Assembly (NCBI GenBank): GCA_044221825.1
Contig: JBGAOL010000002.1
Span: forward strand, 1 to 35,479
DNA from: Gemmatimonadales bacterium
Lineage (GTDB): Bacteria; Gemmatimonadota; Gemmatimonadetes; Gemmatimonadales; GWC2-71-9
Length of the DNA stretch: 35,479 bases
Direction: 5' to 3'
Positions 7,712 to 35,479 of this stretch are shown one piece after another (within the stretch, counting starts at the first letter, position 1; each line of letters starts with the position of its first letter). The notes beneath the pieces are model-generated. The model was not told the origin of the DNA. It did no database searches and was given only the letters and a program-made list of their open reading frames with translations. The position numbers and the translations under genes were made by a program.

Positions 7712-7816
7712 CGGTCTGTTCCAGGTCTGTGTAAGGGGAGTGGTGCGCCCGGGTTTGCGGTGCGTTCCGGGATGAGGGAATATTGCCTGCCTCCCGCCCT
7801 TCCACGAAGAGACCCC

Positions 7817-9924: not shown

Positions 9925-9925
9925 G

Positions 9926-10597
9926 ATGACGGCCGTGGCCCTTCCCATCGTCACCGTGGACGAGCTGCTCCGCGCCCAGGGCGCCGATCCCGCGCGGCTC
10001 GGCGCCCGCCACGCCGCGCTCGCGGCCATCGCCGAGGAGGCGCTCGAGGCCGGGGCGGCGGCGGTAAGCCCGGGGGTGACGTGGAGCTGGCGGGAGGTGC
10101 GCGGGGTGCACCCGGGCCGGGTGCTGCTGGACGGGGCCGGCCCGCTCCGGCACGCGGCGCTGGCGGAGGGCCTGGCCGGCGCCAGCCGGGTGGCGGCGGC
10201 AGCGCTCACGCTCGGCCCGGGGCTGGAGCGGCTGGTGGTCTCGCACGTGATGGGGCGGCCGTCGCTGGCGCTGGCCCTCGACGCCTACGGATCCACGGTG
10301 CTGATGCGGCTCGGCACCGAGGCGCGGCAGGCCATCGCGGCGGAGGCGGCGGGGCACGGGCTGGCCATGGGCCCGTCGCTCTTCCCGGGGATGCCGGGCT
10401 GGCCGGTGGTGCCGGGCCAGGCCGAGCTGCTGGGCCTGCTGGACGCGCCGCCCGACGGGCTCACGCTCACCGAGCTCGGGATGCTGGTGCCGGGCAAGTC
10501 GCTCACGTTCCTGGTGGGCGCGGGGAGCGGCCTGGCGCCGGGGGGCGCCCCCTGCGACGGGTGCGAGGCGTCGCCGCGCTGCTCGCACCGCGCCTGA
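9926..10597 (+). CDS. Methionine-synthase activation-domain-like protein (Met_synt_B12-like)
   Basis: ATG at 9926, one nt after the MttB stop, gives 223 aa. The C-terminal block SLFPGMPGWPVVPGQAELLGLLDAPPDGLTLTELGMLVPGKSLTFLVG resembles the SPGY..W....Q..LF.LL......I.LTES.MM.P.KS signature of the MetH reactivation module. This assignment is from memory of the family pattern. Confidence 0.6.
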   Translation: MTAVALPIVTVDELLRAQGADPARLGARHAALAAIAEEALEAGAAAVSPGVTWSWREVRGVHPGRVLLDGAGPLRHAALAEGLAGASRVAAAALTLGPGLERLVVSHVMGRPSLALALDAYGSTVLMRLGTEARQAIAAEAAGHGLAMGPSLFPGMPGWPVVPGQAELLGLLDAPPDGLTLTELGMLVPGKSLTFLVGAGSGLAPGGAPCDGCEASPRCSHRA

Positions 10598-10598
10598 C

Positions 10599-15002: not shown

Positions 15003-15045
15003 GTCAGGGAAGGCCGCGGGGCCGTTCCTAGTCGCGACTCTCGAC

Positions 15046-15351
15046 TCACCTTAACACATCATACCTCTTCCACTCGGGAAGGTGTACGGCCATCATCGCC
15101 TTGAACAACTTGCCGTGGTTCGGCACCCGCAAGTGCAGGAGTTCATGCAGGATCACAAAATCCTGAAAGTCCCCAGATTTACGACAGAGATCATCCGCGA
15201 GGGTGAGCACACCGGTGGTTGAACAGGACCCCCACTTCCGGGTCATCCGCTGAACTCGCACGATTCGCGGGCTGGCCCGAAGGCGCCTAGACCAGCGATC
15301 AACCTTTCGGCGGAGCCGGGCTCGACAGTTGCTACGCTTCGGCATCCGCAT
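15046..15351 (-). CDS. Short DUF45/M48-like (YgjP/SprT-type) HExxH metal-dependent hydrolase
   Basis: The C-terminal part of ORF 15046-15588 reads [18 protein letters not shown]...[19 protein letters not shown], the WGSC...HELxHL...NH signature of DUF45. The likely start is ATG at 15351 or 15345, overlapping the hsdR stop by 14-20 nt. The upstream 79 codons lie inside hsdR in another frame and are Arg/Ser-rich. Confidence 0.6.
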
Positions 15352-18283
15352 CACCGGCGAGAAGGATCGCGAGGACGAGATCGACGACGCGGCCCCGCTC
15401 GTCCTTGTCGAGTCTGAGGAGAGGGCGATACAGCGCGGCACGCAGCCGGCGCTGTTCCTCCGCATTGACCCGGGCGTTCGGGAAGCGGGCCAGCTCCGTC
15501 TCCCCCTGGCGTGCCAGGTCCATGGCGCTGATTCCGGCTTTCCCGAATGCCGGATCGTCCTTGAGCGCCCAGTAAACGCCGAATGCACGCGGCGAGAGGC
15601 CGCTGTCCTTCTCCGCCTTCAGCGCCGCCTCCTTTTCCCGGGCCAGCGCCTCGATGACGTCCATCGCTGCCAGGCCGGTGGTCGTGCGGTTCTCCAGATC
15701 CTTGAGGATCCGTTCGGCCCGCTCCCGAAGGGACTGCAGGATCGGGGCGGACTCCGGCGCCGCATTCATCTCAGCCCCAAGTCCGCGAACGAGATTGAAA
15801 ACCTTCCCCTCGTCCGACCCCGGGTCTCCCCGGAGCTTCTCCAGGGTCTTGACGTCGAAGGTGACCGACCGCACCCCCTCCCCCAGCCCGTACTGGATCA
15901 CGCTCTCCTTCACGAGCTGCCCGGTCTTGTAGGCCAGGTCGGCAGCGTAGCCGCCTCGATCAGTGTAGGCATTGCGGACAGCGGCATACAACTGCGCCAG
16001 TCGCTTGAATGCGGTGATGTGATCCCGCAATGCCGGTGACGGCGACAGGATTTCCCACAGCGATTCAAGCTCCTTGTAGGCCTCGAAGAAGGCCTTCCGT
16101 GCCTCGGGATCGAGAAATCGACCATAAACGATCGCCTCAAGCTGCTCGTCGAGCCCGCCCTTCGCTTCTGCCTGGAGATAGTCGGTCTTCGCCCGTTCGA
16201 GCCTCGCCAGCAGGTCCTTGAACATCAGGTCGAGGTCCTCGATGACGCCGCTGACATCGGAGCTGTCGAACTGCAAAGCCTTCTTGAGCTCCCGGAGGAC
16301 ACCCACGAAATCGACCACCAGGCCGACCTTCTTCTGCACCCCATTGGCGTCGATGTAGGGCCGGTTCACCCGAGCGATCGCCTGCAGCAGGACGTGGTCC
16401 CGCATCGGCTTGTCGAGATACATGCAGTACAGCACCGGGGCGTCGTAGCCGGTGAGCAGCTTGTCCGTGACGATCAGGATCTTCGGATCCTCGCCCGGCT
16501 TCCGGAACAGCCGCCGCACGTCGGTCTCGCGCTCCTCCGAGAGCTGCACCTCGGCCACCAGCGGGCGCTCGATGATGTCGTTGGGGTTGTCGGTGTAGAC
16601 CGCCTCCGACCACTTCGGCGGCAACAGCTCGTCCAGGGCGCGCTTGTACTTTGCGCAGGCCTCACGGTTCACGCCCACCAGGAACGCCTTGAGCCCGAGC
16701 GGCTGCACCTTTTCCCGGAAGTGTTCGGCAACGAACGCCGCGACCTTTGCGATCCGGTCGTCTGCCGTGAGGAAGGTGCGCAGGCCGACCGCCCGGTCGA
16801 GCACCCGGTTCAGCTCGTCGATATCAGTTACCCCTTCGGCCTCGGCGAGCTGGAAGAACTCACGGTCCAGCCGCTCGGCGGGCACCGTCATCTCGCTCGG
16901 CGCCATGGTGTGCCGGATCGGCAGGGTGGTCTCGTCCTCGATCGACTCGCGGATCGAGTACTTGTCGAGGTACCCCTGCTTGTCATCGGCGCCGAAGATC
17001 TTGAAGGTGCCTTCTCCCTGCGCCGTGCGCGCGATCGGCGTGCCCGTGAAGCCGAGGATGGTCGCATTGGGCACGGCGGCCATCATGTAGCTGCCGAGGT
17101 CCCGGGCCACCGAGCGGTGGGCTTCGTCGATGAAGACGTAGATGTTGTCTCGGGTATTGGCGTTCTTGTCGATCCCCTCGAACTTGTGGATCATCGAGAG
17201 GATCAGGCCGCGCTTGTCGGTCTGGAGCAGCTCCTGCACCTCGGCGCGGGAGCCGGCGCGCCACACCGGGATGTCCTGCTGCTGCATCTCCCCCAGCAGC
17301 TTCTCGACCCAGCCCTTGAGCTGGCCCTCGAGCTCGGTGCGGTCCACCACCAGGATCACGGTCCCGTTCCTGAACCTGGCCTTGTCTTCCAGGACCATCC
17401 GCGCCGCGGTCAGCAGGGTGAAGGTCTTGCCCGAGCCCTGGGTGTGCCAGATCAGTCCTCGCTTCCTGCCCGGGTCCGCGCAGCGCTCGACGATCTTGTC
17501 GATGGCGACGCGCTGATGCTGCCGCAAGACGGACTTCCGGGTCTCCCCATCCTCCACGTAGAACAGGATCCAGTGCTGCAGGGTGCGCAGGAAGTCGGTC
17601 GGCTCGAAGAAGGCCTGGACCGCGAAGCGGTAGCTTTCCTCCCGCTGCTGCTTCCATCGCGCCATGTACCGGCGGTTGGCGTTCCAGGTGACGCCGTACC
17701 AGTAGTCCAGCAGGTGGGTGACGTTGAAGAGCTGGGGCGAACCGATCAGCTCCGGGGTCTCCAGCTCGTAACGCCGAAGCTGGGTCACGGCCCGGTCGAT
17801 GGCGCTGCCGTCCTTGGGGTTCTTGTGCTCGACGATGCAGACCGGCACCCCGTTGACCCGGAACATCACGTCCGCCCGGTTTCCTTTGCGGGCCGGCGGC
17901 TTGAGCTTCCACTCCCAGGTGACGTGGTAGACATTCTCTCCCGGCCGCTCGAAGTCGATGAGCTGCACCCGTCGGTCGCGCTGCTCCCCCTCGTCGTACC
18001 ACTGCCGCTCGCCCCGCAGCCAGGAGAGCATGGTGCGGTTCCCCTCGATGGTCGGGGGGATGGCCTCCAGCTTCTCGATCACCTGGCGGATCGTCTCCGC
18101 CGGCATCCACTCATTGAACCGGGCCAGCGCCGCCTCGAGCTCGTCGCGGAACAGCATGCCGGCCTCGCCGCCCCGCTTCTGCTGGGCGATCTCCGGCGGA
18201 AGCGGTGTCCACCCGATGCCGGCGGCATGCGCCACCATCGGGAACTGGACCGAGCCTGCCTCGGTGATGGTGAGCTGACTCAT
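15332..18283 (-). CDS. hsdR: Type I restriction enzyme, R (endonuclease/translocase) subunit
   Basis: 983 aa. It has an N-terminal PD-(D/E)xK-like block ([18 protein letters not shown]), SF2 helicase motif I (TQGSGKTFT), motif II (FIDEAHRS) and a C-terminal HsdR-type helical domain. Its ATG overlaps the hsdS stop (ATGA at 18280-18283). Confidence 0.95.
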
Positions 18284-19584
18284 GCCGGGGCCTCAGCCAG
18301 CGGGGCGGCCTCGAGCGCCGAGAGGTCGAGGTCGGCGGCCCGGAGCTCGCCGGTCATCAGCTTGTGAAGCAGCGCCTTGAAGAGGTCGTCGAGGATGATG
18401 CGCTTCCTACGGTGAAGTGTGATCTTGCGGTCGATTGCTTCGAGAATGTCCACAATCTCCATCTGCTCCTTTACGTCGGCCGGGAACGCGATTGGGATCC
18501 CGCGGACAATGTCGAGATTCAAGTTCTGCTGCTGACCACCGTGCGCAAGCTGGCGAATGTCTTCGTAGCGATACGCCAGGAACTGGTAGAGATAGCGCCC
18601 CTCAACCGACCCGTCGGTTGGCCGAATCGCCGCGCACGCTTGATTGCAGGCTGCCGGGACCCCGAGTAGCGCCACCTTTCCTCGAGTGACACCTTGGCCA
18701 TACATGGCCATGAGGAGTGTCCCGATCGGAAGGAGTTTGGCCGCCGATCCAGCAAGGCCGGCCTCTGTGATGTGCTCCTCCGTGTCCTCGATAACGCAGT
18801 AATCCACCTCCGAGGTCTTGACCCAAGGGATGTAGCCGCCCTCCCAGTAGGCCGGATTGCCACGCGCGGGGGTGCCTCCTGAGACAACTGAATGGTGCTC
18901 GCCAAGCGAGGCTACCTTCCAACTTGCTGGCAGCGCCCCGATGTCCGAGTCGTTCCGCGCCTCGCCCCGCAGCCCGCGGCTGAAGAGCGCCTGCATCACA
19001 GCCCGCTTGAGGTCTTGGGCCACTGCGGCGGCTTTCGTCTGGATGCTCGAGGCCTTTTGGATGGCTTCGAGGACGTTCGCGCACGCGGTTTGCTCATGTG
19101 GTGAGAGATCAGGGATCGGGAGGTCGAGCAAGACACTTTCCGGAACCCGCTGCCTTCCGGTTGAGCCCTCCATCCGCTCAGCCACATGGTGTCTTACATC
19201 CGGATGGAGGAGGTAGAAGAACAGAAGCCTGGGGTCATAGCCGGGTTGCCGAGCATGCAGGGGAATAACTTCCGTTGTTCCGTAAGCAAACGAGCCCGGC
19301 AACTCGCTCGCCAACGCTTGCTTCCCATTCTCAAAGGACGGGGTGATCTTCGCGACGAGGATGTCACCCTTTTCGAAGTATGTGCCGCTCGAAATCGCAT
19401 CCGGTCGCCGCATCGTGTAGACGGGTGCATAGGAGCCATCCTGTGGGATCGCTTCCATGGCGGCAAACGGGATTTCGGTGAACGTCGAGCGGTTGAGACC
19501 TCGCGGTGCCTTGGTGACCTCGTAGGCGTCACCGACTCGAATCCACGGTCGCCCCTGTTGGAGGACTGCTTCAAGCAGGTTCAT
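18280..19584 (-). CDS. hsdS: Type I R-M specificity subunit with two target-recognition domains
   Basis: 434 aa. Two TRD-like halves are each followed by a conserved helical spacer (...[39 protein letters not shown]... and ...[40 protein letters not shown]). It sits between hsdM and hsdR with overlapping ends. Confidence 0.9.
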
Positions 19585-21412
19585 CGCTCACTCCGCTCAG
19601 CATCTGGGAGATCGTGGCGGAGAGAGAGCTGGCATCTGCATCAAGCCTGCCCATCTCTCGGAGCAATGCGCCCACTGAGCCGACTTCCGCGGTGCTGGAT
19701 TGTCCCACCCACCGGCTGGGACTCAGGTTGTAATCCTCGTTCGCGGCCTGCTCCCGCGTAATGACCGCGATCTCCCCCTCGACTTCCTCCCCTTTGATGT
19801 AGGCGGCTGCCAGAGGACGGATGGCATCCTCGGGAATGAAGTTCTTCGGCCGCCCCTTCTGCACCCGCTTCGACGCGTTCAGCAGGACGATCTTGCCCTT
19901 CCGCGCCGCCGGCTTCCGGCGCGACAGCACCACGATCACCCCGGCCGCGGTGGTGTTGTAGAACAGGTTGTCCGGCAGCAGGATCACGCCGTCGATCAGG
20001 TCGCGGTCCACGAACCACTTCCGGATGTTCCGCTCCCGGTCCTCGTTTCTGGAGCCGGAGCCCCGGGTCACCGCGCCGGTGTCGAGCACCACCGCCGCCC
20101 GCCCCCGCTCTTGGCGAGGCAGGCCAGGTGTGCTGCAGCGCCAGGCCCAGTCACCCTTGCCGGTGGTCACCCCGCCCTGGCCGGTGAAGCGGTCGAAGGG
20201 GTCATCGGCCAGGAGATCCGGGTTGAACGGCTGGTTCCACATCGGATTGGCCACCACCACATCGTAGGTGCGGATCCGGCTGTCGGCGGTTTTGAACTTG
20301 GGGTTGATCATGGTGTCGCCCCGGGCCATCTCCACGGTCATGTCGTGGATGATGGCATTCATCTTGGCCACCGCGTAGCTCTCGGCCGTGAGCTCCTGAC
20401 CGTAGAGCTTGAGCGGCACTTTGCTGGTGGGGTCCAGCTCCCGCGCCACGAGCTGGAGCTTGACCAGGAGCCCCGCCGAGCCGCAGGCGTAGTCGTGGCA
20501 CTCCTCGCCGGGCCTCGGGCGCATGATGTGCGCCATCAGGAAGCCGACCTCGGTTGGCGTGAAGAACTCGCCGGCACTCTGCCCCGAGCCTTCGGCGAAT
20601 TTCCTGAGGAGGTACTCGTAGGCCCGGCCGAGGAAGTCGGGCTGCACGTCGGCCAGGCCGAGGCGGTAGCGGGGATCGGAGAAGGTTTCCACGACCTCCC
20701 GGAGCTTGGCCGGATTGATGTCCCGCTCGCCATTCCGCTCGGCACCGAAGTCCACCACATCGATGACGCCGGAGAGGGACGGGTTCTGGCGGACCACCGC
20801 CCGCACCGCCCTGGTCAGGTGCTCACCGATGTCCTTCGGGCGGGTGCTCCGGCCCTGATCGTCGCTGGGCCAGTCGTACGACGTGCGCCCGTTGATGACG
20901 CCCCATCGGGCTTCCCGCGGGAGGTAGAAGCGGAGAAGGCCGTGATCCTCCTCGGCGATTTCCAGCGCGGTCTCCCGACTGCCATATTCCTCTGCCAGGC
21001 GCTCGATCTCGTCATCGAAGACGTCCGACAGCCGCTTGAGGAAGAGGAGGGGAAGCAGGTAGTCCTTGAACTTCGCCGCGTCCTTTTCTCCCCGGATGGA
21101 ACACGCGGCGTCCCAGAGCATCTGCTCCATGGGTTTGGTGGATGGCGCGCTGGTTGGACCCTTCGCCCGCCGCCGTGTTACCTGCGCCGCTGCCTGGCTT
21201 GAGTCTGCCCTTTCATTTCCGTCAATGCCGGCTTCCAGCGCCAGTGCAGCAATGGCGGTCAGTGCGGCCTTCTGCGGTTTGGTCAGCCCGCCCTCCCAGC
21301 GATTGACAGTCGCGAAGGAAACGCCGAGGCGCTCTGCCAGCTTTTCCTGGCTGAGGTTGAGGCTTGCCCGGATCGCCTGCAGGGTTGCAGATACATCAAT
21401 TGATTTAGTCAT
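19571..21412 (-). CDS. hsdM: Type I R-M N6-adenine DNA methyltransferase subunit with N-terminal XRE-type HTH extension
   Basis: 613 aa. The N-terminus [23 protein letters not shown] is a helix-turn-helix. It is followed by an HsdM_N-like block ([35 protein letters not shown]), an AdoMet motif ([11 protein letters not shown]), the catalytic NPMW (NPPY/F/W-type) motif and [17 protein letters not shown]...[10 protein letters not shown]. Confidence 0.9.
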
Positions 21413-21418
21413 GTATGA

Positions 21419-21433
21419 TATATACGCTATATA
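21419..21433. promoter_or_regulatory. TATATA-cgc-TATATA element immediately upstream of hsdM (possible -10 / leaderless-type promoter)
   Basis: tatata (21419-21424) and tatata (21428-21433) lie 7-21 nt from the hsdM ATG (21412). No Shine-Dalgarno sequence is visible between them and the start. Confidence 0.25.
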
Positions 21434-21475
21434 ACAAAATACTGCAATAGCTGTATTATGAGACGAAATCTTGAA

Positions 21476-21551
21476 TAAACCAAACTATGATTATTCCATA
21501 GTTTGGTTTAGCTTGTAAACCAAACTATGGAGCTCCATAAGTTTGGTTTAC
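21476..21551. promoter_or_regulatory. Two tandem palindromic operator-like sites sharing the half-site AAACCAAACTATG
   Basis: O1 is taaaccaaactatg (21476-21489), a 7-nt spacer, then catagtttggttta (21497-21510), a perfect 14-bp inverted repeat. O2 is gtaaaccaaactatgg (21515-21530), 4 nt, then ccataagtttggtttac (21535-21551), the same arms with one extra A. They are located in the divergent hsdM/Fic intergenic region. Confidence 0.7.
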
Positions 21552-21568
21552 TGCTGATAGGGAGGCGC

Positions 21569-22768
21569 ATGCCTGGCCATACAGTTCACAGGATCTGGCA
21601 GAGCAATCCCGTCCTTGATGCACCGGCCAAATACCGGAAGGCCTGCGGCTACGAGCCCTTCATCCCGGATCTGCTGGGCGGACTCCAGCTGCACCTGCCG
21701 GGGGATGTGGCGGGCCTGATTACCGAGGCGGAGGCGGCGATTCGAGGCCTGAATGCTCCCGGCAAGAATGCCCTGCGCCCTTTGGCCCGGCTGCTATTGC
21801 GTACCGAATCCATCGCCTCCTCCAAGGTGGAGGGCATGCAGATGGGGGTGCGTGAGCTCGCGCGTGCCGAGGCGAAGATGGAAGCGGGTGGAAAAGGGAG
21901 CCAGACCGCGATCGAGATCCTCGACAACGTCAACGCCATGGAAATCGCAATCGCCGAGGCGGCCAGAACGGAGCAGTGCGAACCGGCCGCCATCCTGGCG
22001 ATTCACGGACGCCTGATGGCGCACGACCGGCGCGCGGATATCGCGGGCCGGTTCCGGACCGAGCAGAACTGGATCGGGGGTAACGACTACAACCCTTGCG
22101 GTGCGGACTTTGTGCCGCCGCCGCCAGAGGAGGTGCCTCATCTTCTCGATGATCTTTGCGCCGCCATCAATAGAGATGAACTCCCTGCTCTGGTGCAGGC
22201 GGCGCTGGTGCACGCCCAGTTCGAGACCATCCATCCATTCGCGGATGGTAACGGGCGGACGGGGCGCGCCCTCATTCACGTGATCCTGAAGCGTCGAGGG
22301 GTTGCCCCAGCGTATGTGCCGCCGATCAGCGTCATCCTTGCCGGGGCAAAGGATCGGTACATCGAGGGGCTGACCCGATTTCGGCAGAGCGAAGAGGGGG
22401 CGCTGGCGTGGATCGAGCAATTTGCCGGCGCAGCGGCCCGATCAGCGACACTGGCTCAGAGGTATCTCGAGGAAGTGCAGCAGCTCCAGACGGAGTGGCG
22501 GGAGCGCTTGCGGCGAGTCGGGGAACCCAGAACCGATGCGGCCGCCTGGGCAGTCATCGATGTGCTGCCTGCCCATCCGGTGATCACCGCGCCGGTCGCG
22601 GCAGCGGCGACTGGTCGTTCTAAGGCACCGATCTACGAGGCGCTCATCCAGCTACAGGAAGCCAGGGTGCTCAGGCCGTTGTCTGAATCGAAGAGAAATC
22701 AATCGTGGGAGTCGGAGGGAATGCTGAACCTCATTGCCGGGTTGGAGTCAGGTACGATGCCAGCCTGA
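21569..22768 (+). CDS. Fic/DOC-family protein (probable AMPylase) with Fic_N inhibitory helix and C-terminal wHTH-like tail
   Basis: Canonical Fic motif HPFADGNGRTGRALI. The N-terminal SxxxEG inhibitory motif is present (IASSKVEGM). The preferred start is ATG 21569, preceded by AGGGAGG at 21559-21565. The track's upstream ATG at 21527 lies inside operator O2 and has no SD. Confidence 0.85.
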   Translation: MPGHTVHRIWQSNPVLDAPAKYRKACGYEPFIPDLLGGLQLHLPGDVAGLITEAEAAIRGLNAPGKNALRPLARLLLRTESIASSKVEGMQMGVRELARAEAKMEAGGKGSQTAIEILDNVNAMEIAIAEAARTEQCEPAAILAIHGRLMAHDRRADIAGRFRTEQNWIGGNDYNPCGADFVPPPPEEVPHLLDDLCAAINRDELPALVQAALVHAQFETIHPFADGNGRTGRALIHVILKRRGVAPAYVPPISVILAGAKDRYIEGLTRFRQSEEGALAWIEQFAGAAARSATLAQRYLEEVQQLQTEWRERLRRVGEPRTDAAAWAVIDVLPAHPVITAPVAAAATGRSKAPIYEALIQLQEARVLRPLSESKRNQSWESEGMLNLIAGLESGTMPA

Positions 22769-22846
22769 CCGCGACTGCCCGAGCTCGCGCTCGAGGCGGT
22801 AGCGGTCGGCGAGGGCGCCGGCCAGACGGTCCGGAATGCCGCTCAC
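22748..22846 (-). pseudogene. 5' remnant of a Ser/Thr kinase paralog (first 24 codons only)
   Basis: GTG at 22846 opens VSGIPDRLAGALADRYRLERELGQ, matching the N-termini of the intact paralogs. The reading then runs into unrelated SRSGWHRT* overlapping the Fic 3' end. The GTG overlaps the stop of the upstream kinase (GTGA at 22843-22846), as at the intact junctions. Confidence 0.75.
22779..22817. repeat. 39-nt exact repeat (kinase 5' coding segment), right copy flanking the island
   Basis: Identical to 14812-14850 and 25664-25702. Confidence 0.9.
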
Positions 22847-25728
22847 GGCCTGCCCTCCAGGTCCCCGACCGCCGCCAGCTCGGCACGGACGCTGTCGCGC
22901 TGCGGGATGCGGGACAGCTCCGGGTCCACCCGCATGCGCAGGTAGCCCCGGTAGGCGCGGATGGCGCCGGCCCGGTCTCCCGCTGCCGCCGCCAGCTGGC
23001 CCTCGAGCCGGAGCGACTCGGCGAGCCCCATCGGCTTGGGATAACCCACCGAGCTGTAGCGCCGGCGCACGGCGCGGAGCGCGCGGTCGATGCGCCCCTC
23101 GGCCTGGTAGAGCCGGGCGAGCTGGATCGACGCCCAGTCGGCATTGCCCTCGCGGCCCACCCACATGGAGTCGGCGACATCCAGGAGGCGGGGCGCCGCC
23201 GGGTCACGGCGCTGGACGGCGATGATGGCCTCCGTGAGTGGCACCATGCGAATCCAGAACCCCTGCGTCGAGTCCTTGGCCGCCCGCTCCTTCTGGAACG
23301 CGAGGACCCGCGGCCCGACGCTCAAGTCCCCCCGGACAAGCCGGGTGAAATCCAGGAGATCGGGGCTCAGGCGCGTGCTGTCGAGGGGAGGGCCGCCATA
23401 GTAGGTGGCCATGAGCCACGGATAGACCGGGTTCGGGTCCATGGTGCGAAGCGTGTCCAGCCACCGGGCGGCCTCCGCGGGCCGGCCCCGGTTGAGCAGG
23501 ACGTACGCGCGGGAGAGCGCCATCTCGTGCCGCTCCCCCCGGGAGGCGGCCTGGGCGTGGAACAGCTCCAGCAGCTCCGGCTGGCGCACGATGGTGAGGC
23601 TGTCGAGCGGATTCTGGAAGAGGATGCCCTGCACCGCGTCGACCGGCTGGTCCTTGAGCGCAACCAGGAACCGCCGCAGCCCGACGGTGTCGCGCGTCGC
23701 CGAGAGCAGGTCCCAGCGGGCGAGCGCCACCGTCTCGGCCGTGGAATCGAGCGCCACCGCCCGCTCGGTCCAGAGGCGTTGCGCCGCGGTGTCTCCCGCG
23801 ACGAAGGCCACCCGCGCCATGTGCGCGATGGGGCTGCCGTACAGCGAATCGAGCCGGAACGCCCGCTCGAAGGCCTGCCGCGCCCGCAGCTCGGGGTCGG
23901 TGATGTCGGAAAGGCGTCCGGCATGGAACAGCGCATCGGCCAGGTAGTGCCACGCCTCGGCGCTCTCCGGAATCGACTGCACCGCGCGTTCCGCGTCCGC
24001 GATCTTGTCGGTCCACGGCGTCTGGCGCGGGTAGCGGGACCCCTGGCGCAGCGTCAGGAAGAGCTGGTCCTGCGGGTTGAGCCGACCCCGGTACTGCCAG
24101 GCGAGCCGGTTGACGCGCAGCATGTCCACGGTCGCCGGGTGCCAGCCATCGGATTCGATCAGCGCCGACAGTGCCAGCGCAAAGGTGGAATCGAGCTGGA
24201 TCGCGCGCTCGAAGGCGGGCGTCGAGAGCTGGAAGGCGCCCCGGCGGAAGGCGGCCATCCCGTCGAGATACGCCCGGAGCGCCTCGAGGCTGGTGGTGGT
24301 CAGGGCGCTCACCTGCGACGCCTGCGCCCCGGCACCGAGGGCCAGCAGTTGCGCGGTGAGGCGGTCCACCATCACGAAGAGCGAATCCTTGGGCCCGTTC
24401 ACGCTCGCCTGCGCGAGCACGCGGCCGCCCGGCATCTCCTGCAGCGTCGCGGCGATCACCAGCTGGCCGGCCGGACCCACGATGCTGCCCTGCAGCACGC
24501 GGCCCGCGCCGATCTTCCGCGCCACGCGATCAACGCCCTCGGCCGGCAGGTCGTCATCGGCGCCACCGGCATCCCGCACGGCGGCCAGCACCGAGCGGGT
24601 GTCGGCGGAGCGCGGTCCGCCCTCGCCGGTGAGCTTGGCCTGCAGCAGGTCCACCATGCCCTGGCGCAGGTACTGGACGCTCGGATCCGCGCCCGCCACG
24701 CGAAACGGCAGCACGGCGACGAGGTGCGGATCGAGCTCACGGCCGCCCCGTGCCCACGGCCGCCACACGCCGAGGGCCACCGCCACCACCAGTCCCAGCG
24801 CCCCGGCGATCGTGGCGATGCGCGTCCCCCGCCCGCTGGCCGGGCCGGCGGCCACCGGCCGGGTGCTCGTCGGGGTCATCCCGCCGCTCGGCGTCGCCAG
24901 CGGCTCGAGCGCGGCGCCGAGCTCCTCGGCGGTCTGGAAGCGGTCGGCCGGACGCTTGGCGAGGCAGCGCATGATGGCCGTCTCGAGCGCCGGCGCGAGC
25001 CCCGCCCGCTGCTGGCCCACGGGCGTGGGCTCCTTCATCACGTGCGCCGCGAGCATCTGCTGCGGGTTCAGCCCGTGGAAGGGTGGGAAGCCCGTGAGCA
25101 TCTCGTAGCCCATCACGCCGAGGGCGTAGATGTCCACGCGGGCGTCCATCTGCGGGTCGGCCGAGGCCTGCTCGGGGGCCATGTAGGTGGGGGTGCCGAG
25201 GGCCACGCCGGCGGTGGTGAGCTGCTGGCGGCCGGACGCCTCGGTCACCGCCTTGGCGATGCCGAAGTCCATCACCAGCGCGTGGCGCCCCGAGAGCAGG
25301 ATGTTCTCCGGCTTGATGTCGCGGTGGACCACGCCGGCGTGGTGCGCCACGGCGAGCGCCTCGGCGATCTCGCCGAGCAGGCGCACGGCGTCGGGCACGG
25401 GGAGCTCGCCGGTGCGCGTGAGGCGGTCGCGCAGGGTCTCGCCCTCGACGTAGGGCATCACGTAGTAGAAGAAGCCCTGCGCCTCGCCGGAATCGAGCAC
25501 GCCGAGGATGTGGGGATGCTGCAGCCGCGCGGCCACCTCGATTTCGCGCAGGAAGCGGTCCGAGCCGAGCGTGGCCGCGAGGTCGGGCCGGAGCACCTTG
25601 AGCGCCACCTTGCGGTGATGCTTCAGGTCCTCGGCCAGGTAGACGGTGGCCATGCCACCCTGGCCGAGCTCGCGCTCGAGGCGGTAGCGGTCGGCGAGGG
25701 CGTCGCGGAGGCGGTCGTTCAGGGTCAT
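22843..25728 (-). CDS. Receptor-type Ser/Thr protein kinase with extracytoplasmic VAVLPF-type domain and TPR-like repeats (paralog K3)
   Basis: ATG at 25728 (MTLNDRLRDALADRYRLERELGQGGMATVYL) gives 961 aa. Kinase motifs are HRDIKPENILL, MDFGIAKA and YMAPEQ. The TM segment is IATIAGALGLVVAVALGVW. VAVLPFRVAG and multiple TPR-like helical pairs follow (e.g. AEAWHYLADALFHAGR, RAYVLLNRGRPAEAARWLD, ARLYQAEGRIDRALRAV). The 178 upstream codons of ORF 22843-26262 overlap K4 out of frame. Confidence 0.85.
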   Translation of the reverse strand: MTLNDRLRDALADRYRLERELGQGGMATVYLAEDLKHHRKVALKVLRPDLAATLGSDRFLREIEVAARLQHPHILGVLDSGEAQGFFYYVMPYVEGETLRDRLTRTGELPVPDAVRLLGEIAEALAVAHHAGVVHRDIKPENILLSGRHALVMDFGIAKAVTEASGRQQLTTAGVALGTPTYMAPEQASADPQMDARVDIYALGVMGYEMLTGFPPFHGLNPQQMLAAHVMKEPTPVGQQRAGLAPALETAIMRCLAKRPADRFQTAEELGAALEPLATPSGGMTPTSTRPVAAGPASGRGTRIATIAGALGLVVAVALGVWRPWARGGRELDPHLVAVLPFRVAGADPSVQYLRQGMVDLLQAKLTGEGGPRSADTRSVLAAVRDAGGADDDLPAEGVDRVARKIGAGRVLQGSIVGPAGQLVIAATLQEMPGGRVLAQASVNGPKDSLFVMVDRLTAQLLALGAGAQASQVSALTTTSLEALRAYLDGMAAFRRGAFQLSTPAFERAIQLDSTFALALSALIESDGWHPATVDMLRVNRLAWQYRGRLNPQDQLFLTLRQGSRYPRQTPWTDKIADAERAVQSIPESAEAWHYLADALFHAGRLSDITDPELRARQAFERAFRLDSLYGSPIAHMARVAFVAGDTAAQRLWTERAVALDSTAETVALARWDLLSATRDTVGLRRFLVALKDQPVDAVQGILFQNPLDSLTIVRQPELLELFHAQAASRGERHEMALSRAYVLLNRGRPAEAARWLDTLRTMDPNPVYPWLMATYYGGPPLDSTRLSPDLLDFTRLVRGDLSVGPRVLAFQKERAAKDSTQGFWIRMVPLTEAIIAVQRRDPAAPRLLDVADSMWVGREGNADWASIQLARLYQAEGRIDRALRAVRRRYSSVGYPKPMGLAESLRLEGQLAAAAGDRAGAIRAYRGYLRMRVDPELSRIPQRDSVRAELAAVGDLEGRP

Positions 25729-28390
25729 GACTTCACCTTGGCGCGGAGCTCGGTGAACCAGTCCTCCACGTAGAAGACGTTCTCGCTCGCGGGCCCGGCC
25801 AGGTCCTTGATCATCAGGAAGCGCTGGTCGCCCGGCGCGACGTCGTACTGCTGGCGGTTGCGGGCGGCGATGTAGCCGTCGAGGCGGAAGAGCGGGCGCG
25901 GCGTGCCGGCCGTGAAGCTGGCTCCCGTGGTGACGGGCACCGCCATCAGGTGCGTGGGGCTCTTGTAGAAGAGTTCGCGCCCGCTGTGCGCCCAGCGGAC
26001 CTCGGTGCCGCCGCCGCTCGAGATGGGCCGCCGCCACGCCACCGAGGGGAAGGGCGAGACGTAGACCTCGAGCGCCCCATCGGCGTCCGAGGAATAGGCG
26101 ATGTACTTCCCGTCCGGCGACAGGTCGAAGATCGAGGTGCGGTCGGCGCCGATGAGCAGGCCCATGAGTACGGTGTCGCCGCTGGTGCGCCGGTAGCGGA
26201 TGTTGCCGTCGCCGCCCTCCTCGTCGGCGCGGACCACGAGGTACTGCCCGTCCCGCGTCCATTCTACTTCCCAGAGCCCGAAGCGGTGGTCGGCGACGAT
26301 CACGGGCGGGGCGCTGCCGTCCACCGGCACCATGAAGGCGTCGTAGGCGTCCTGGCCCTCGCGGCCGGTGGCGTTGGAGAGGTAGGCCAGCGCCGTGCCG
26401 TCGGCGCGCCAGTGGGGGCGCCAGTTCACCGTGCCCTGCTGGGTGATCCGCTGGCGGGTGCGGTCGTCGCGCCAGAGCCAGAGCTGGGTGCCGTCCTCCA
26501 TGATGCTCAGCGCGATGGCCTTCCCGTCGGGGGCGATGGCGGGATAGACGAACCGCGCGTGCCAGGTGCTGTCCACCGCCCGGGCCGAGCCGTCGCGGGC
26601 CACCCAGGTGAGCTCACGGGAGGCGTGGCCCAGGCCGCCGCCGGTGCTGTAGAGCAGCGCGCCGGTGCCGGCGAGCGCCACGGTGCCGGGCTCCACGTCC
26701 TCGAGCACGGGGACGGCGCCGCCCGTCAGCTGCATTGCATTGAGGTCGAACGGTGCCGCGAACAGGCCACCCTCCCGGGAGGTGTACAGCAGGTGGCCGG
26801 TAGGCGCGTACCAGGCCCCCGCCGCATCCTTGGCCAAGAGGCGTGCGCTGTCGGCGCCGAAGTCCCAGACATAGATCGACGACGCCACGCCGCAGTTGCC
26901 GGGACACTGGGTGAACAGGAGGCCGCGGCTCCCGGGGAGCGGGGTGATGGCGGCCGTGGTGCGCCGGATCATCAGGGAGTCGCCCTCGACCCGCACGGCC
27001 GCCCCGCCGGCCGCCGGCAGTCGGACGATCTGGTTCCCCTGGTTGACGTAGAGAATGGTCCCGTCGTCGAGCCACGCCGCATTGCCGTACACCAGGTTCA
27101 CGTCCTCGGCCAGCGTCACCGCGCCGCCGCCCGCGACGGGGACCTTGCGGAGCTTCTCGCCGCTCACGAAGCCCACCCACTGGCCGTCCGGGGAGAAGAA
27201 CGGGGAGATGGCGCCCTCGGTGCCGGCGATCGGCACCGGTTCGCCCTCGTGGCGGAGCTTGCGATAGAGGCGGAGCTGGCCGTCGGCGGAGTCGGCGAAG
27301 ACGATGCTGGTGGCGTCGGGCGCCAGCGCCGCCTGCGCGGCGAGCCGCTGCACCCCGGGCGAGAGAATCGACCCGAAGGCATGGCGCCACAGCAGCACCC
27401 GCTGGCGCGAGGGCAGCTCGGCCGGGCGCGGGCGGAAGGCCTGCGCGGCGAGGGCCAGGAGGAGCACCACGTTGAGTGCCGCGAGCGGCAGCAGCCAGCG
27501 CGGGCGCGCACCACTCGCCGCGGCGGGTGCCGTCGCCCGCGTCCCCGCGCCCGCGCCGTAGCGCACATCGCCGAGCGCGTCGGCGAAGGCGCGCGCGGAC
27601 TCGAAGCGGTCGGCGGGCAGCTTCTCGATGGCCTGCGCCACGGCGGCCGCCACGTGCGGCGGCACGCTCTTCCGCACCCTGGTGACCGGGGCCGCCTCCT
27701 CGGTCACGATCTTCATGATGATCTGCTGCGCCGACGCGCCCACGTGCGGCGGGTTGCCGGTGAGCATTTCGTAGCAGACGCTGCCGAGCGAGTAGATGTC
27801 GCTCTTGGCCGTCAGCTCCTTCTCCGCCGTGGCCTGCTCCGGCGACATGTAGTGCGGCGTGCCGAGCGAGAGGCCCGTCTCCGTCATGCGGCCACCCGCG
27901 GCGGCGCTGAGCGCCAGCGCGATGCCGAAGTCCGCCACCATGGGGCGGCCATCGTGCAGGAGGATGTTCTCCGGCTTGATGTCGCGGTGGATCACGCCGT
28001 GGCGGTGGGCGTAGTCGAGCGCGTCGGCCACGGCCACGGTGATGCGCACGGCCTCGTCGATGCCGAGCTGGGTCTCGCGATCGAGCTTGCTCCGGAGCGT
28101 CTCGCCGTCGATGAACGGCATCACGTAGTAGAGGAAGCCCCCGGCCTCGCCGCTGTCGAAGAGCGGGAGGATGTGCGGGTGCTGGAGTGCCGCCGTGGTC
28201 TTGATCTCCACCACGAAGCGTTCGGCGCCTAACATAGCCGCGAGCTCGGGCTTGAGGACCTTGACCGCCACCTTGCGGTCGTGCTTCAGGTCGTGGGCCA
28301 GGTAGACGCTCGCCATGCCGCCCTCGCCGAGCTTCCGCTCTAGGCGGTAGCGGTCGGCGAGGGCCTGGGCCAGGCGCTCCGGGGCGGCGG

Positions 28391-28394
<4 letters not shown>
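25725..28394 (-). CDS. Receptor-type Ser/Thr protein kinase with TolB/PD40-like beta-propeller (paralog K4)
   Basis: ATG at 28394 (MTAAPERLAQALADRYRLERKLGEGGMASVYL) gives 889 aa, with full kinase motifs, a TM segment (WLLPLAALNVVLLLALAAQAF), SPDG repeats and the C-terminal FYVEDWFTELRAKV. This is only the 3' part of the 1940-aa track ORF 25725-31547. Confidence 0.9.
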
Positions 28395-31047
<2,653 letters not shown>

Positions 31048-31051
<4 letters not shown>

Positions 31052-33714
31052 GGGGCCCCCGCCATCTTGGCCTTGGCCTCGCCGTCCCAGTGGAGCACCA
31101 CCACCAGCTGCCGCGCGGCGTCGATGGGCACCTCGGCCCGCGAGAGGAAGATGAAGCCCTTGTCCCCGGGGAGCGCCGTGAACGCCTGGTGGTAGGGGAA
31201 GAGGACGAAGCTGCGGGTGCTGAAGAGCGACCGGCGGCTGGTGGGCTGGAACTCCGTGGTGCCGCCCGTGCCCACGGCCACCAGCGTGTCCGCCCGCTCC
31301 ACGTAGTAGAGCTCGCGCCCCGAGGCCGACCACACCGGGTGCGCCCCACCCGCGATGGACACCTGGGTGCGGCCCTGCTCCACCGCCGGGAACGGCCGCA
31401 CGAAGACCTCCTCGCGCCCCGACTCCACCGAGACGTAGGCGATCCACTTCCCGTCGGGGGAGAGCGCCGGCATGTACTCGTCGGCGCGGCCGGCGGCGAT
31501 AGTGACGCGGCTCGTGTCGCCGGTGGTGCGGCGGGCGTAGATGTCACGGACGCCAGGTACGGTGCCGGTGCGGTAGATGAGCCACTGCCCGTCGGCGGAC
31601 CAGAGCGCCTCGTCCACCTGCGCCGTGTCGCCCGGGAGGAGGCGGACCGGCTGGTCGCTGCCGTCGGCCCGGATCCGGTAGAGGTAGGTGCGCGAGCGGT
31701 CGCGGTCGGAGCTGAAGCTGATGGAGCGGCCGTCGGGGAGCCAGGCCGGCCGGTAGTTGATGGAGCCGTCGAAGCTGAGGCGGGTGAGCGGGCCCTGGTC
31801 GAGCTGCTTCACCCAGAGGATGTTGCCGGTCGGCTCCGCGGTGCTCACCACGAGCCGGCGCCCGTCGGGGGAGAGGGCCAGGCTCGTGAAGCGGGCCCGC
31901 CAGGAGGGATCCACCACGCGGGCGCGCCCCGCCAGGTCCACGGTGCTGACGGTGCCCACCCCCGCCACCTGGTTGGCCGGCAGGTACACCAGCGTCCCGT
32001 CGTCGGCCAGGGCCACCTCGGGCACCACGCCGATCTCGAGCTGCACCCCGTTCAGGAGCGGCACCGGCGGCCGCTCGAAGCGGAGCTTGTCCAGGTCGAA
32101 CGGCGCCCCGGCCAGCGTCCCGTCCGACTGCAGCACCACCAGCCGCCCGTCGCCGAGGTAGAAGCCGCGCGAGGTGTTCCGGGCCAGCGTGTCCATGGCC
32201 CGCGTGGCCAGGTTGAGCGCCAGCAGGTGCTCCGACGCGCAGTTGTTGCTGCAGAGGGTGAGGAGGACCACGTCGTTGCGGGGCACGCGCGTGGGGAAGG
32301 CCATCACGCCGTCGGCCGGGGCGGGGAGCACCTCGGTGGCCGCGCCGCCGCCCGCCGGGACCATCCGGAGGCCGAAGGCGTCGCTGGTGTAGATGATCCG
32401 GTCGTCGGCCAGCCAGGCGCCGCCGGGGAGGATGCTGCTGGCACCGCCCGCCAGCTCCACGGGCGCCCCGCCGGCCACCGGCACCTTGTAGAGCTTGCTG
32501 TCCGCGATGTAGCCCACCCACTTGCCGTCGGGCGAGAAGAAGGGCCCGTCGCCGCCGTCCGTGCCCTCGAGGGTGCGCACCTGGAGGTCGCCGAGGTCGC
32601 GCACCGCGATGCGGGTGGGCCCGGGCTCGTTGGCGGCCACGTAGGCGAGGCGCCGCCCGTCGGGGGAGAGCGCGAAGGCGACGCCATAGTAGCCGACGTG
32701 GTTGACGCGGAGGGCGGGCAGGTCGAGCCCGAGTCGGGTCACCGGCGCGGGCGCCGGCCGCCACACCTTCACCGCCAGCGCGAGCGCGGCCAGCGTCGAG
32801 ACCATCGCCACGACGCCGAGCACGCGCATGGCGAGCGGCGGTGCCGCGGGCCGCGCCGCGGCGCGCGAGGCCGTCGCGGGCCGCGCGCCCTCGTCCCGGA
32901 GCGCGGCCGCGAACTCCGCGGCACTCGCAAAGCGGTCCGCCGGCAGCTTCTCGAGGGCGGTGAAGACCGCCGCCTCCACGTGCGCCGGCACCGTGCGCCG
33001 CTGCTCCGTGAGGCTTGCTGGCTCCGCCGTCATCACCCGCGCCACGATGGCCTGCGCCGTGGGGCCGGTGAAGGGCGGTTCGCCGGCCAGCATCTCGTAC
33101 GTCGTGACGCCGAGCGCGTAGAGGTCGGCGCGGGCCGTGATCTCCCGCTCGCCCATGGCCTGCTCCGGCGCCATGTACTGCGGCGTGCCGAGGCTCATGC
33201 CGGTCTCGGTCATCCGCGAGCCGCCCGCCTTGCTCGCCGCGAGCGCGATCCCGAAGTCGGCGACGAGGGCGCGGCCCTCGTGGAGCAGGATGTTCTCGGG
33301 CTTGATGTCGCGGTGGATGACGCCGTGGCGGTGGGCATAGTCGAGCGCACCGGCCACCTCGCCCGCGATGCGCACGGCATCCGCCACCGGCAGCTGCTTC
33401 TCGCGCGTGAGCCGGTCGCGGAGGGATTCGCCCTCGATGAACGGCATCACGTAGAAGAGCTGGCCGCCCGCCTCCCCGCTGTCGAAGAGCGGCAGGATGT
33501 GCGGGTGCTGGAGGTTCGCGGTGGTCTTGATCTCGGCCAGGAAGCGCTCCGCACCGAGAATGGCGGCGAGCTCCGGGCGGAGCACCTTCATGGCCACCGG
33601 GCGGCCGTGCTTCTCGTCGTCCGCCAGGTACACGCTCGCCATGCCGCCCTCGCCGAGCTTGCGCTGCAGGCGGTAGCGGCCGGCGAGGGCGGCGGCGAGG
33701 CGCTCGGGGATCAC
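31048..33714 (-). CDS. Receptor-type Ser/Thr protein kinase with TolB/PD40-like beta-propeller (paralog K6)
   Basis: GTG at 33714 (V-IPERLAAALAGRYRLQRKLGEGGMASVYL) gives 888 aa, with kinase motifs, a TM segment (VLGVVAMVSTLAALALAVKVW) and SPDG repeats. Its stop overlaps the K5 GTG. Confidence 0.85.
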
Positions 33715-35479
33715 CGGCTGCCCGCCTTCCGCTCGAGCTCCGTGAGCATCCCCTCCACCACCACCAGCGGCAGGTCCTCTCCCGTCCCATGGGACACGAG
33801 CCGCGCCATCAGGAAGCGGCCGTCCGGCGCCACGTCGAAGGGGGTGTAGAACTCCGCCTGGCCCAGGTAGTGCCGCTCGCTGAGTGGGAAGAGGGTCACG
33901 TGCTCGCCGAGCCGGGGTTCTGCGCCTGGCGTCACCGCCACGGCCGTCAGGCGCCGGTCCGCGTTTACGTAGAAGAGCTCGCGCCCATTCCGTGACCAGA
34001 GCGGTGCCACCCCGCCATCGGTGGAGACCTGCCACTTGCCCGCGCTGGTGCTCGGGAAGGGCCGCAGGAACACCTCGGTGCGCCCCGTCTCGTTCGACTC
34101 GTAGGCCAGCCAGCGCCCATCCGGCGAGAGCGCGATGGCCTCCTCATCGTGCTTGGTGACCACCACCGGCACCGGGACGCTGTCGATCCCGGGCCGCAGG
34201 CCCACGATGTCCCGCCCGCCGGTCTGCCCGATGATGCCGCCGGTGCGGAAGAGGAGCCACCGCCCGTCGGGGGACCAGGTCGCCTCATAGACCCCGGCCT
34301 GGGAGTGAAAGAGGAGGGAGTCCGCCCCGGTGCCGTCGGCCCGCCGCAGGAAGAGGCCGCCGGCAGTGGCGCTGAGGCGGGCGGCGGCGAACATGAGGGT
34401 TCGGCCGTCGCGCATCCAGCGGGGCCGGAACTCCGGCGCCGCCTCCGAGGTGACCCGGGAGAGCGGGCCGCGCGGCAGCTGCTTCACCCAGATGTCGTCG
34501 CCCGCCTCGGTGTGGAGGCCAAGCGCCACCCTCGAGCCGTCCGGCGAGAGCGCCCATCCAGCGTTGTTGCCGAAGCTGGTGAGCGCGAACGTCCACCCCG
34601 GGTCCACCGGCGTCTCGCGCCCGCCGCGGTCCACCCAGACCAGCTCATACTGCCGGACCAGCTGCTCCGGCGAGCCGCGCCGGAACACCACCGTGCCGGA
34701 AGCGGACAGCCCCACGAGGGGAAACACCACGTCGGTAAGCGCGATGCTGTCCAGCACAGGGACGGGGGTCCCCGAGGGCTTGAGGGTCGAGAGATCGAAC
34801 GGCACCGCCAGCATCACGCCATCCCGGCGGATGTAGGCCAAGTGCCCCGTCGGGAAGTAGAAGCCCAGGACGGCGCCGGCCACGACCTCGTGCGAGGTGC
34901 GGGTCCGGAGGTCGAGCACCCACACATCCGCTTGCGTCCGGCAGTCCGGCAGGCACCGCGTGTAGAGGATGCCGCGCGCGCCGGGCAGCGCCGCGAGCAA
35001 CACCCCCACCGAGCCGTCCACCGGCAGGTCCTCCACCGTCCCGCCGTCCGCGGGGATGCGCCGGAGGAGCGCACCCCCGGTGGGGGCACCCGAGCTGTAC
35101 GCGATGGTGTTATCGTCGAGCCATGTGATCCCCACCACGCCCGCCGCCCACCCGGCGAGGGTGACAGCCGCTCCGCCCGCCGCCGGCACCTTCCGCAACT
35201 GCTCGCCAACGCGGAAGGCGAGCCACTGGCCGTCCGGGGACCACGTGAAGTCGGCCACCCCGTCGCTGCCGAGCACCGGCCTGGCGTCGAAGCTGTCGCG
35301 CGCCTTGATCCAGAACTGCGGCACCCGCCCTGCGCCGACACTCGGCGCGAGGTAGCCGATGCGTGAGCCGTCCGGGGAGGGCAGGCCGCTCCACAACGCA
35401 AATGGCGCCTGGCCCGGCGGCAGGGCAAGTCCGAAGCGCGCCAGCGGCGTCTCCGCCGGACGCCGGGCCGCCGCCACCG
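33711..35479 (-). CDS. TolB/PD40-like beta-propeller region, probably the C-terminal part of a further kinase paralog (K7; 5' end outside the window)
   Basis: The reading frame is open to the window edge. It shows SPDG repeats and the same C-terminal tail type (VVVEGMLTELERK). Its stop overlaps the K6 GTG. A kinase domain is inferred from the paralogs and is not visible. Confidence 0.75.
   Translation of the reverse strand, partial: VAAARRPAETPLARFGLALPPGQAPFALWSGLPSPDGSRIGYLAPSVGAGRVPQFWIKARDSFDARPVLGSDGVADFTWSPDGQWLAFRVGEQLRKVPAAGGAAVTLAGWAAGVVGITWLDDNTIAYSSGAPTGGALLRRIPADGGTVEDLPVDGSVGVLLAALPGARGILYTRCLPDCRTQADVWVLDLRTRTSHEVVAGAVLGFYFPTGHLAYIRRDGVMLAVPFDLSTLKPSGTPVPVLDSIALTDVVFPLVGLSASGTVVFRRGSPEQLVRQYELVWVDRGGRETPVDPGWTFALTSFGNNAGWALSPDGSRVALGLHTEAGDDIWVKQLPRGPLSRVTSEAAPEFRPRWMRDGRTLMFAAARLSATAGGLFLRRADGTGADSLLFHSQAGVYEATWSPDGRWLLFRTGGIIGQTGGRDIVGLRPGIDSVPVPVVVTKHDEEAIALSPDGRWLAYESNETGRTEVFLRPFPSTSAGKWQVSTDGGVAPLWSRNGRELFYVNADRRLTAVAVTPGAEPRLGEHVTLFPLSERHYLGQAEFYTPFDVAPDGRFLMARLVSHGTGEDLPLVVVEGMLTELERKAGSR

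Follow-up and report, generated by a model that had tools for sequence, protein, structure and literature searches.

What does it mean that a series of large receptor kinases, all paralogous to one another, should be encoded one after the other with each start codon lying across the stop codon of the preceding gene? This question is raised by contig JBGAOL010000002.1 (assembly GCA_044221825.1) of a soil-type Gemmatimonadales bacterium, which was analysed over its entire length of 35,479 nucleotides (nt; 74% G+C) and is referred to here as the window. On its minus strand, the genes K7, K6, K5, K4 and K3 and a short remnant are linked by five consecutive 4-nt overlaps (−4 junctions) of the form GTGA or ATGA. 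A sequence-only reading of the window considered this arrangement unexpected for sensor kinases and offered two ways of explaining it, a hetero-oligomeric receptor set or a co-regulated battery of sensors. The observations described below lead us to consider it probable that the locus is a co-transcribed and translationally coupled battery of diverged Hanks-type receptor kinases, built in the manner of an ordinary operon. The question has a wider scope than this one contig: the Gemmatimonadota are abundant soil bacteria that hold a very large family of Ser/Thr kinases with propeller ectodomains, and nearly half of the same-strand neighbours within that family are joined by stop/start overlaps.

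The stop/start junctions and the start codons

All five junctions are found on the minus strand at the positions given in the sequence-only reading, and at each of them TGA is the end of the upstream open reading frame (ORF) and NTG is the start of the next gene. K7 and K6 share the GTGA at 33714-33711 (...AGC CGG TGA / GTG ATC CCC GAG CGC CTC), K6 and K5 the GTGA at 31051-31048, K5 and K4 the ATGA at 28394-28391, and K4 and K3 the ATGA at 25728-25725; the last GTGA, at 22846-22843, joins the stop of K3 to the original start of K2, a gene that now lies apart from the others.

The notion that these NTGA sequences are merely chance start-like codons in high-GC frames, the true starts being elsewhere, deserves attention, given that DNA of 74% G+C yields off-frame ORFs of hundreds of codons (one of 1940 amino acids runs across K4 and K5) and that the base in front of a TGA stop is A, G or T in approximately three quarters of cases. 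Because of such long spurious frames, the starts were tested in four ways. The G+C content at third codon positions (GC3) of the downstream frame is 0.47–0.55 in the 300 nt before the starts and 0.95–0.97 after them (0.47 to 0.97 at the K7/K6 junction; 0.84 in the remnant, which is short), so that the switch falls exactly at each junction. The next in-frame start upstream is 46–107 codons away, and a later start would remove the strand of the Gly-rich loop, the only candidate before that point being the GTG at codon 4 of K5. A kinase-domain hidden Markov model (HMM), with the Leu of the motif P(E/D)RL as anchor, was run over 79 related loci (all from Gemmatimonadota, 1.2 Mb in total, each limited to ±10 kb) and returned 215 family members; in 121 of them the nearest in-frame start is exactly 7 codons before the anchor, and −4-coupled genes (36 of 59 with this spacing) do not differ in their distribution from stand-alone genes, which have more than 50 nt of upstream spacer (67 of 111). 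Lastly, the homologues listed (more than 100) measure 882–903 residues, save one of 867 and one of 923, and an independent database gene call for K5 (P0001) has 886 residues and the same start. N-terminal length thus agrees with that of stand-alone members and of homologues, and the artefact is extremely improbable.

NTGA is the sole plausible start at four of the five junctions. In K5 alone, another GTG follows three codons inside (VSAV-PERL), and the start of this gene is therefore at either −4 or +5. The two GTGs of K5 aside, the starts of the chained kinases at NTGA are correct, as the sequence-only reading had placed them, and the rule for annotating this family is to start at NTGA.

Architecture of the chained kinases

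K7 (33711..35479, minus strand) is represented by its 3′ part, 588 amino acids of a PD40/TolB-type ectodomain (Pfam PD40, E = 7.7e-26; family ectodomain HMM, E = 1.4e-147), its 5′ end being beyond the end of the contig. K6 (31048..33714, minus) encodes 888 amino acids, with a Pkinase domain, one transmembrane helix (298–316) and a PD40 propeller ectodomain; K5 (28391..31051, minus) encodes 886, with a PknB-like kinase domain (1–275), a transmembrane segment and an all-beta ectodomain; and K4 (25725..28394, minus) encodes 889, with Pkinase, a transmembrane helix and a PD40 ectodomain. The description of the set as sensor kinases of about 890 amino acids fits these three propeller proteins (886–889), and it does not extend to K3 (22843..25728, minus), whose 961 amino acids comprise Pkinase, a transmembrane helix and a TPR-like, non-propeller ectodomain. 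K2 (12246..15002, minus; longest ORF from the GTG at 15002) again has Pkinase, a transmembrane helix and a PD40 ectodomain, and K1 (2368..5010, minus) is a stand-alone member of the family. The latter is 38–43% identical to the propeller kinases over its full length and its ectodomain is without a Pfam match; its N-terminus is MTTPPDRL and the gene begins with GTGA.

The kinase domains of K1 to K6 score 162–173 bits against PF00069 (Pkinase), for which the Pfam gathering cut-off is 31.7. A motif scan found the Gly-rich loop, VAxK, HRDxKPxN, DFG and APE kept in all six; for the APE of K4 the regular expression reported only an N-terminal APER, and the APE positions are invariant in alignment A1, K4 included. 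Judged by these motifs, none of the six looks like a pseudokinase and all appear to be catalytically competent. One hydrophobic segment is found at approximately residues 296–322 in K1, K3, K4 and K6, and at 338–356 of the 918-residue ORF of K2. As for the ectodomains, PD40 matches in K2 and K4 to K7 have E values of 1e-16 to 1e-28 (Pfam), while K3 has weak TPR matches only and no PD40.

An AlphaFold2 model of K5 (mean predicted local distance difference test score 82, built on a 47-sequence alignment) predicts a disordered linker at 280–299, a transmembrane helix at 299–321, an all-beta region at 330–875 and a C-terminal helix at 876–885. Its nearest solved structures are those of Mycobacterium tuberculosis PknB and PknA (E = 2e-19, TM-score 0.82–0.86 on the target), to which the kinase domain is 36–39% identical. 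The kinase domain dominates the Foldseek search of the PDB with K5, in which no neighbour of the ectodomain was found; at the sequence level the ectodomain matches TolB chains (E = 4e-14), and precomputed matches to Tricorn_N and Tricorn_2nd exist. The all-beta ectodomain of about 545 residues is probably formed by two propellers. From the domain matches, the transmembrane segment and the K5 model it follows that these kinases are single-pass receptors of the Hanks type, the kinase being cytoplasmic, with a large periplasmic propeller sensor (about 560 amino acids), or with a TPR sensor in K3. They are also paralogs with different ectodomains, as previously proposed: besides the domain matches, the ectodomains of neighbours are only 32–40% identical. 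A search for homologues of the family gave at least 8000 candidates at E ≤ 1e-30, and the names on the protein relatives are Gemmatimonadales or Gemmatimonadaceae; no NCBIfam model covers the family at full length, every match being below its cut-off.

How frequent are −4 junctions in the family?

In the related loci, 106 kinases have a same-strand kinase upstream within 3 kb, and 43 of these overlap it by exactly 4 nt. When the gap is 50 nt or less (65 kinase-kinase pairs), these 43 make −4 the commonest type of junction, so the idea that such an overlap is not expected between paralogous sensors does not hold here. The background was estimated with a crude GC3-based caller that picks a −4 start wherever possible, and its rate is for this reason an upper bound: the caller places −4 junctions in 45% of kinase-kinase pairs and in 17% of non-kinase same-strand pairs (Fisher p = 3.6e-6). 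With these figures, the enrichment of the kinase family for −4 junctions, about 2.6-fold, is real. The same overlaps appear in the output of independent gene callers for the relatives.

Five −4 junctions in a row would be expected in approximately 2% of cases (0.45^5), a figure that treats as independent events junctions that are not. The survey of relatives that the sequence-only reading had suggested reveals chains of three to four in nine other loci and four to five consecutive kinases in the related locus L165, and the chain of the window is the longest seen among loci of ±10 kb. A run of five is uncommon, yet it is within the normal behaviour of the family.

The junction is not a privilege of kinase pairs, and overlaps of this type are common in the lineage. 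It also joins kinases to unrelated genes upstream, namely two PIN toxins, a PP2C, a beta-lactamase-like protein, a GMC oxidoreductase and a BNR/sortilin-like protein, and in one kinase to an MFS transporter downstream. Among stand-alone members, 63 of 91 (69%) begin with ATGA, GTGA or TTGA, Thr or Ser being the usual second residue; the N-terminus of the family consequently contains a TGA in the +1 frame, and an upstream gene in that frame stops there. Junctions of +8, +15, −1 and 0 are also present among the relatives. In two loci, tiny ORFs of 61 and 43 amino acids (L001, 199-384; L166, 9873-10004) show 4-nt overlaps with the kinases on both sides; they may be gene-caller artefacts, remnants or coupling "bridges".

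Old paralogs in a fluid array

Neighbouring kinases in the window are 44–48% identical overall (kinase domains, 54–69%), while orthologues of K5 in other genomes reach 81%, 80%, 75% and 65%. The neighbours are not recent tandem duplicates, given these values and the presence in another genome of orthologues of both K5 and K2 that are 80–81% identical. Within genes of paralogs that are otherwise about 45% identical, the first 60 nt or so are nearly identical at the DNA level.

The composition of the array differs from one genome to another. In L004 the orthologues of K5 and K2 are adjacent (7413-11971), without the K4 and K3 that lie between them in the window (compare 12246-31051), which points to either an insertion of K4 and K3 in the lineage of the window or their deletion in L004, the −4 junction being kept either way. 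In L001 neither neighbour of the K5 orthologue is orthologous to K6 or K4, and in L045 and L082 the K3-like and K4-like genes are in the opposite order. The adjacency that would be conserved between subunits of a complex is thus not found, since neighbours or order differ in L004, L001, L045 and L082. A preferred pairing of PD40 and TPR ectodomains was also considered and rejected, none being seen among the related loci. Judging from these comparisons, the paralogs are old and the content of the array is fluid, which fits a set of interchangeable, independent sensors and fits poorly a fixed multi-subunit receptor.

The displaced sixth gene

Beyond K3 the chain continues into the remnant (22748..22846, minus strand), 32 codons that read VSGIPDRLAGALADRYRLERELGQ followed by 8 foreign codons and a stop. 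It is not a decaying paralog: it belongs to K2, whose original 5′ end was cut off by an island. This island (14868..22774) is a 7.9-kb block of low G+C content (63% vs 74%) that splits K2 from the chain, and it is flanked by an imperfect 60-nt direct repeat (54 of 60 positions match), with the left copy (14808..14867) inside the present 5′ region of K2 and the right copy (22775..22834) inside the remnant. The repeated sequence encodes residues 5–24 of a family kinase. It is not a unique signature of this site, as was considered at one point, for its 38-bp core recurs in K3 and, with near identity, in K1.

The closest relative, L004, is informative in this respect. In it the K5 orthologue (81%) is joined by a −4 overlap to the K2 orthologue (80%), and the N-terminus of the latter, MSGVPARL, is much like the VSGIPDRL of the remnant; remnant and K2 are further linked by a common CGT codon and by a break point at ...ELGQ. 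The gene order of L004 and the matching N-termini indicate that the remnant is the original 5′ end of K2, the sixth gene of a chain that once ran K7-K6-K5-K4-K3-K2. The original chain had at least six genes, and the later entry of the island into K2 left the 32-codon remnant coupled to K3. The Fic and type I restriction-modification island is inserted within the first 24 codons of K2, which now lacks a start of the family type; an in-frame TTG can be made out by eye about 19 codons upstream of the anchor. No island-free K3-K2 site came to light when metagenomes were scanned for exact matches to the K3/remnant junction.

What do the overlaps mean?

The genes of the chain abut with no intergenic DNA, each upstream gene ending on the N-terminal TGA of the next. 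In a simple scan the array strand showed nothing resembling a sigma-70 site, and the sole terminator-like match is on the opposite strand (22127-22147), outside the array. With neither intergenic DNA nor a terminator or sigma-70-like site on the array strand, co-transcription and coupling are the natural reading. The array would be read as a single mRNA, on which a ribosome that has finished one kinase would begin again at the start of the following one; for −4 overlaps, experiments in E. coli and Haloferax have demonstrated such termination-reinitiation (Huber et al., 2019, PMC6728339). The near-identical first 60 nt or so of the genes would offer a ready site for the unequal recombination of whole units, so that start-to-start gene units could duplicate or shuffle through this conserved 5′ coding block, junction included. 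An NTGA junction may also be difficult to get rid of after it has arisen, given that its start and stop codons have bases in common. The outcome would be a coordinated battery of independent sensors, with differing ectodomains and near-identical catalytic outputs.

Two other ways of understanding the overlaps have to be considered together with this one. The first of them sees the chained kinases as subunits of one obligate multi-kinase receptor, whose stoichiometry and assembly are set by the overlaps. The enrichment of −4 junctions in kinase pairs is in its favour, and so is the structural match of the kinase domains to PknB, PknB-type kinases being known, as general background, to dimerise and trans-phosphorylate. 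According to one study, moreover, the products of overlapping unidirectional gene pairs are often subunits of a heteromeric complex (PMC10666635). The larger survey, of 3,998 genomes, is against this: overlaps are not enriched among complex subunits over close non-overlapping neighbours (bioRxiv 10.64898/2026.09.10.750558), so that the statement that translational coupling is usual for the subunits of one complex is itself disputed. The family does not behave in such a manner either. Partners vary, the K5 orthologue being succeeded by that of K2 in L004 and, in L001, by kinases that are not orthologous; the K3-like/K4-like order can be reversed; ectodomain types have no preferred pairing; no member looks like a pseudokinase; the same junction joins kinases to unrelated genes; and many members stand alone. 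With partners that are not conserved, this half of the earlier proposal is weakened to the point of being quite unlikely, while the data agree with its other half, the co-regulated battery of sensors.

According to the other view, genome compaction, combined with a Met-Thr/Ser N-terminus, yields the overlaps as a by-product; they would not matter for expression, and each kinase would be initiated, and perhaps also transcribed, on its own. This would explain that 69% of stand-alone kinases start with NTGA and that the junction varies in relatives (+8, +15, −1, 0), and it agrees with −4 being the commonest overlap type in bacteria and with a report that overlaps are evolutionarily labile (bioRxiv 10.64898/2026.09.10.750558). 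It does not account for kinase pairs being 2.6-fold above a background that is already an upper bound, nor for the persistence of the junctions between paralogs only about 45% identical, and the downstream start is within the footprint of the terminating ribosome, a position that leads to coupling where it has been tested (PMC6728339). We regard it as doubtful, and the coupled battery of independent sensors as the better explanation.

Several points weigh against that battery nonetheless. Both the single transcript and the coupling itself are deductions made from DNA sequence. The background rate was obtained with a crude GC3-based caller, and real gene tables show only few non-kinase pairs; the promoter and terminator scan, the former with a consensus of the E. 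coli type, says little for Gemmatimonadota at 74% GC. Motifs resembling Shine-Dalgarno sites precede 37 of 59 coupled starts and 37 of 111 stand-alone starts, and their greater frequency at coupled starts makes independent internal initiation possible. As to the history of the chain, the island has no recombinase gene (neither integrase nor transposase), and the mismatches of the 60-nt repeat are clustered. The same Shine-Dalgarno counts, made in G-rich coding DNA, find the motif absent at two thirds of stand-alone starts, which is compatible with a lineage that relies little on such sites without being decisive.

If the coupling is true, the locus, a polycistron longer than 13 kb, would be a clean natural case of expression driven by termination-reinitiation, in a lineage seemingly sparing with Shine-Dalgarno sites, and the junctions would define which sensors are co-expressed. 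Its practical value lies in the annotation of start codons, in an operon model, and in an example of a restriction-modification island that disrupts such a chain. A bolder proposal would have the junctions as hard-wired Met-Thr/Ser polycistrons under selection, with kinases made at fixed ratios forming mixed, cross-phosphorylating assemblies that are re-dealt from strain to strain by the shuffling of cassettes; we give this an outside chance.

Comparison with known systems

The pstP-rodA-pbpA-pknA-pknB operon of M. tuberculosis resembles the locus in having two adjacent, same-strand, paralogous Hanks receptor kinases in one operon. In strain H37Rv the pknA stop and the pknB start presumably share a 4-nt overlap as well, although no explicit statement of it was found in the literature. 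That operon differs in that its two kinases are set among cell-wall genes, whereas in the window at least six are consecutive, with no non-kinase partner inside the chain, and in that PknB has a PASTA ectodomain and PknA almost none, whereas those of the window kinases are TolB/PD40 propellers or TPR. A third mycobacterial kinase, PknD, is also a single-pass Hanks kinase with an extracytoplasmic beta-propeller sensor. The NCBIfam model of PknD matches only the kinase part of the window proteins, below cut-off, and its single six-bladed NHL propeller contrasts with the approximately 545 all-beta residues found here (PD40 + Tricorn_N + Tricorn_2nd), which are probably two propellers.

Propeller-type repeats in bacterial kinases have long been known (PMC1262709). 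Tandem Ser/Thr kinase paralogs are part of the expanded kinomes of myxobacteria (Perez et al., 2008, cited by PMC11032199), and in Planctomycetota there are Pkinase-transmembrane-WD40/TPR architectures, some of whose duplicates are immediately adjacent (PMC11032199). The likeness of such expanded kinomes to the family described here is considerable: large, lineage-specific, membrane-spanning families with a cytoplasmic Pkinase, periplasmic repeats and adjacent duplicates (PMC11032199). They differ in that their duplications are mostly species-specific and recent (PMC11032199), while the window holds old paralogs with closer orthologues in other genomes, and in their WD40 ectodomains, those of the window being PD40/TolB/Tricorn-like; in its accessible part, PMC11032199 does not mention stop/start chaining.

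About 15% of co-directional bacterial gene pairs overlap, ATGA being the commonest type; whether overlap marks the subunits of complexes has one study for it (PMC10666635) and a larger one against it (bioRxiv 10.64898/2026.09.10.750558). The −4 coupled pairs described previously (PMC6728339, PMC10666635) are likewise co-directional, with a stop and a start that share 4 nt. The difference is that the genes of the window encode sensors paralogous to each other rather than subunits or partners in a pathway, and are known from sequence alone. No literature on kinases or signalling in Gemmatimonadota was found, and the preprint "Atlas of bacterial STKs" makes no mention of this phylum, of PD40 or TolB, or of tandem genes. 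Neither Ser/Thr kinase paralogs in tandem nor −4 overlaps are new, and no new mechanism is involved.

The restriction-modification island

According to Pfam, the island carries hsdR (15332-18283, minus strand), hsdS (18280-19584, minus) and an HTH-hsdM (19571-21412, minus), together with a gene on the plus strand for a Fic protein (21527-22768), a 413-amino-acid ORF that adjoins the repeat. This ORF was considered as a possible integrase, a role that was rejected in view of its Pfam assignment. In 2010, Furuta, Abe and Kobayashi reportedly described restriction-modification units whose insertion had duplicated a long stretch of the target. The island is similar to such units in being a type I cassette of foreign composition, with a direct repeat of the target gene and no recombinase gene; it is different in that the copies of its repeat differ at 6 of 60 positions, which are clustered. 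A second copy of the island was not found in metagenomes, where 80 relatives of the Fic protein are at most 63% identical and none of the 80 adjoins the hsdMSR set of the island or kinases.

Within the island, the hsdS stop and the hsdR start also overlap by 4 nt (18280-18283), which illustrates how common junctions of this kind are in operons, whatever their origin, and hsdM and hsdS overlap by 14 nt (19571-19584). Between the divergent hsdM and Fic genes, a 35-nt palindrome occurs twice (21476-21550; TAAACCAAACTATG...CATAGTTTGGTTTA), the copies being 40 nt apart. The palindromes resemble operators, which the HTH_3 domain fused to the N-terminus of HsdM may bind.

Other features of the window

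A PP2C phosphatase gene (5066-5959, minus strand) lies 55 nt upstream of K1, forming a classic phosphatase-kinase pair, and directly upstream of it is a gene for an SH3_3-domain protein (6051-6725, minus). The segment 6842-12224 is a corrinoid-dependent methyl-transfer cluster, made up of a homocysteine S-methyltransferase (6842-8188, minus), an MttB-family methyltransferase (8476-9924), an ORF of 238 amino acids with no Pfam or NCBIfam match (9881-10597) and the RACo corrinoid-activation protein (10599-12224).

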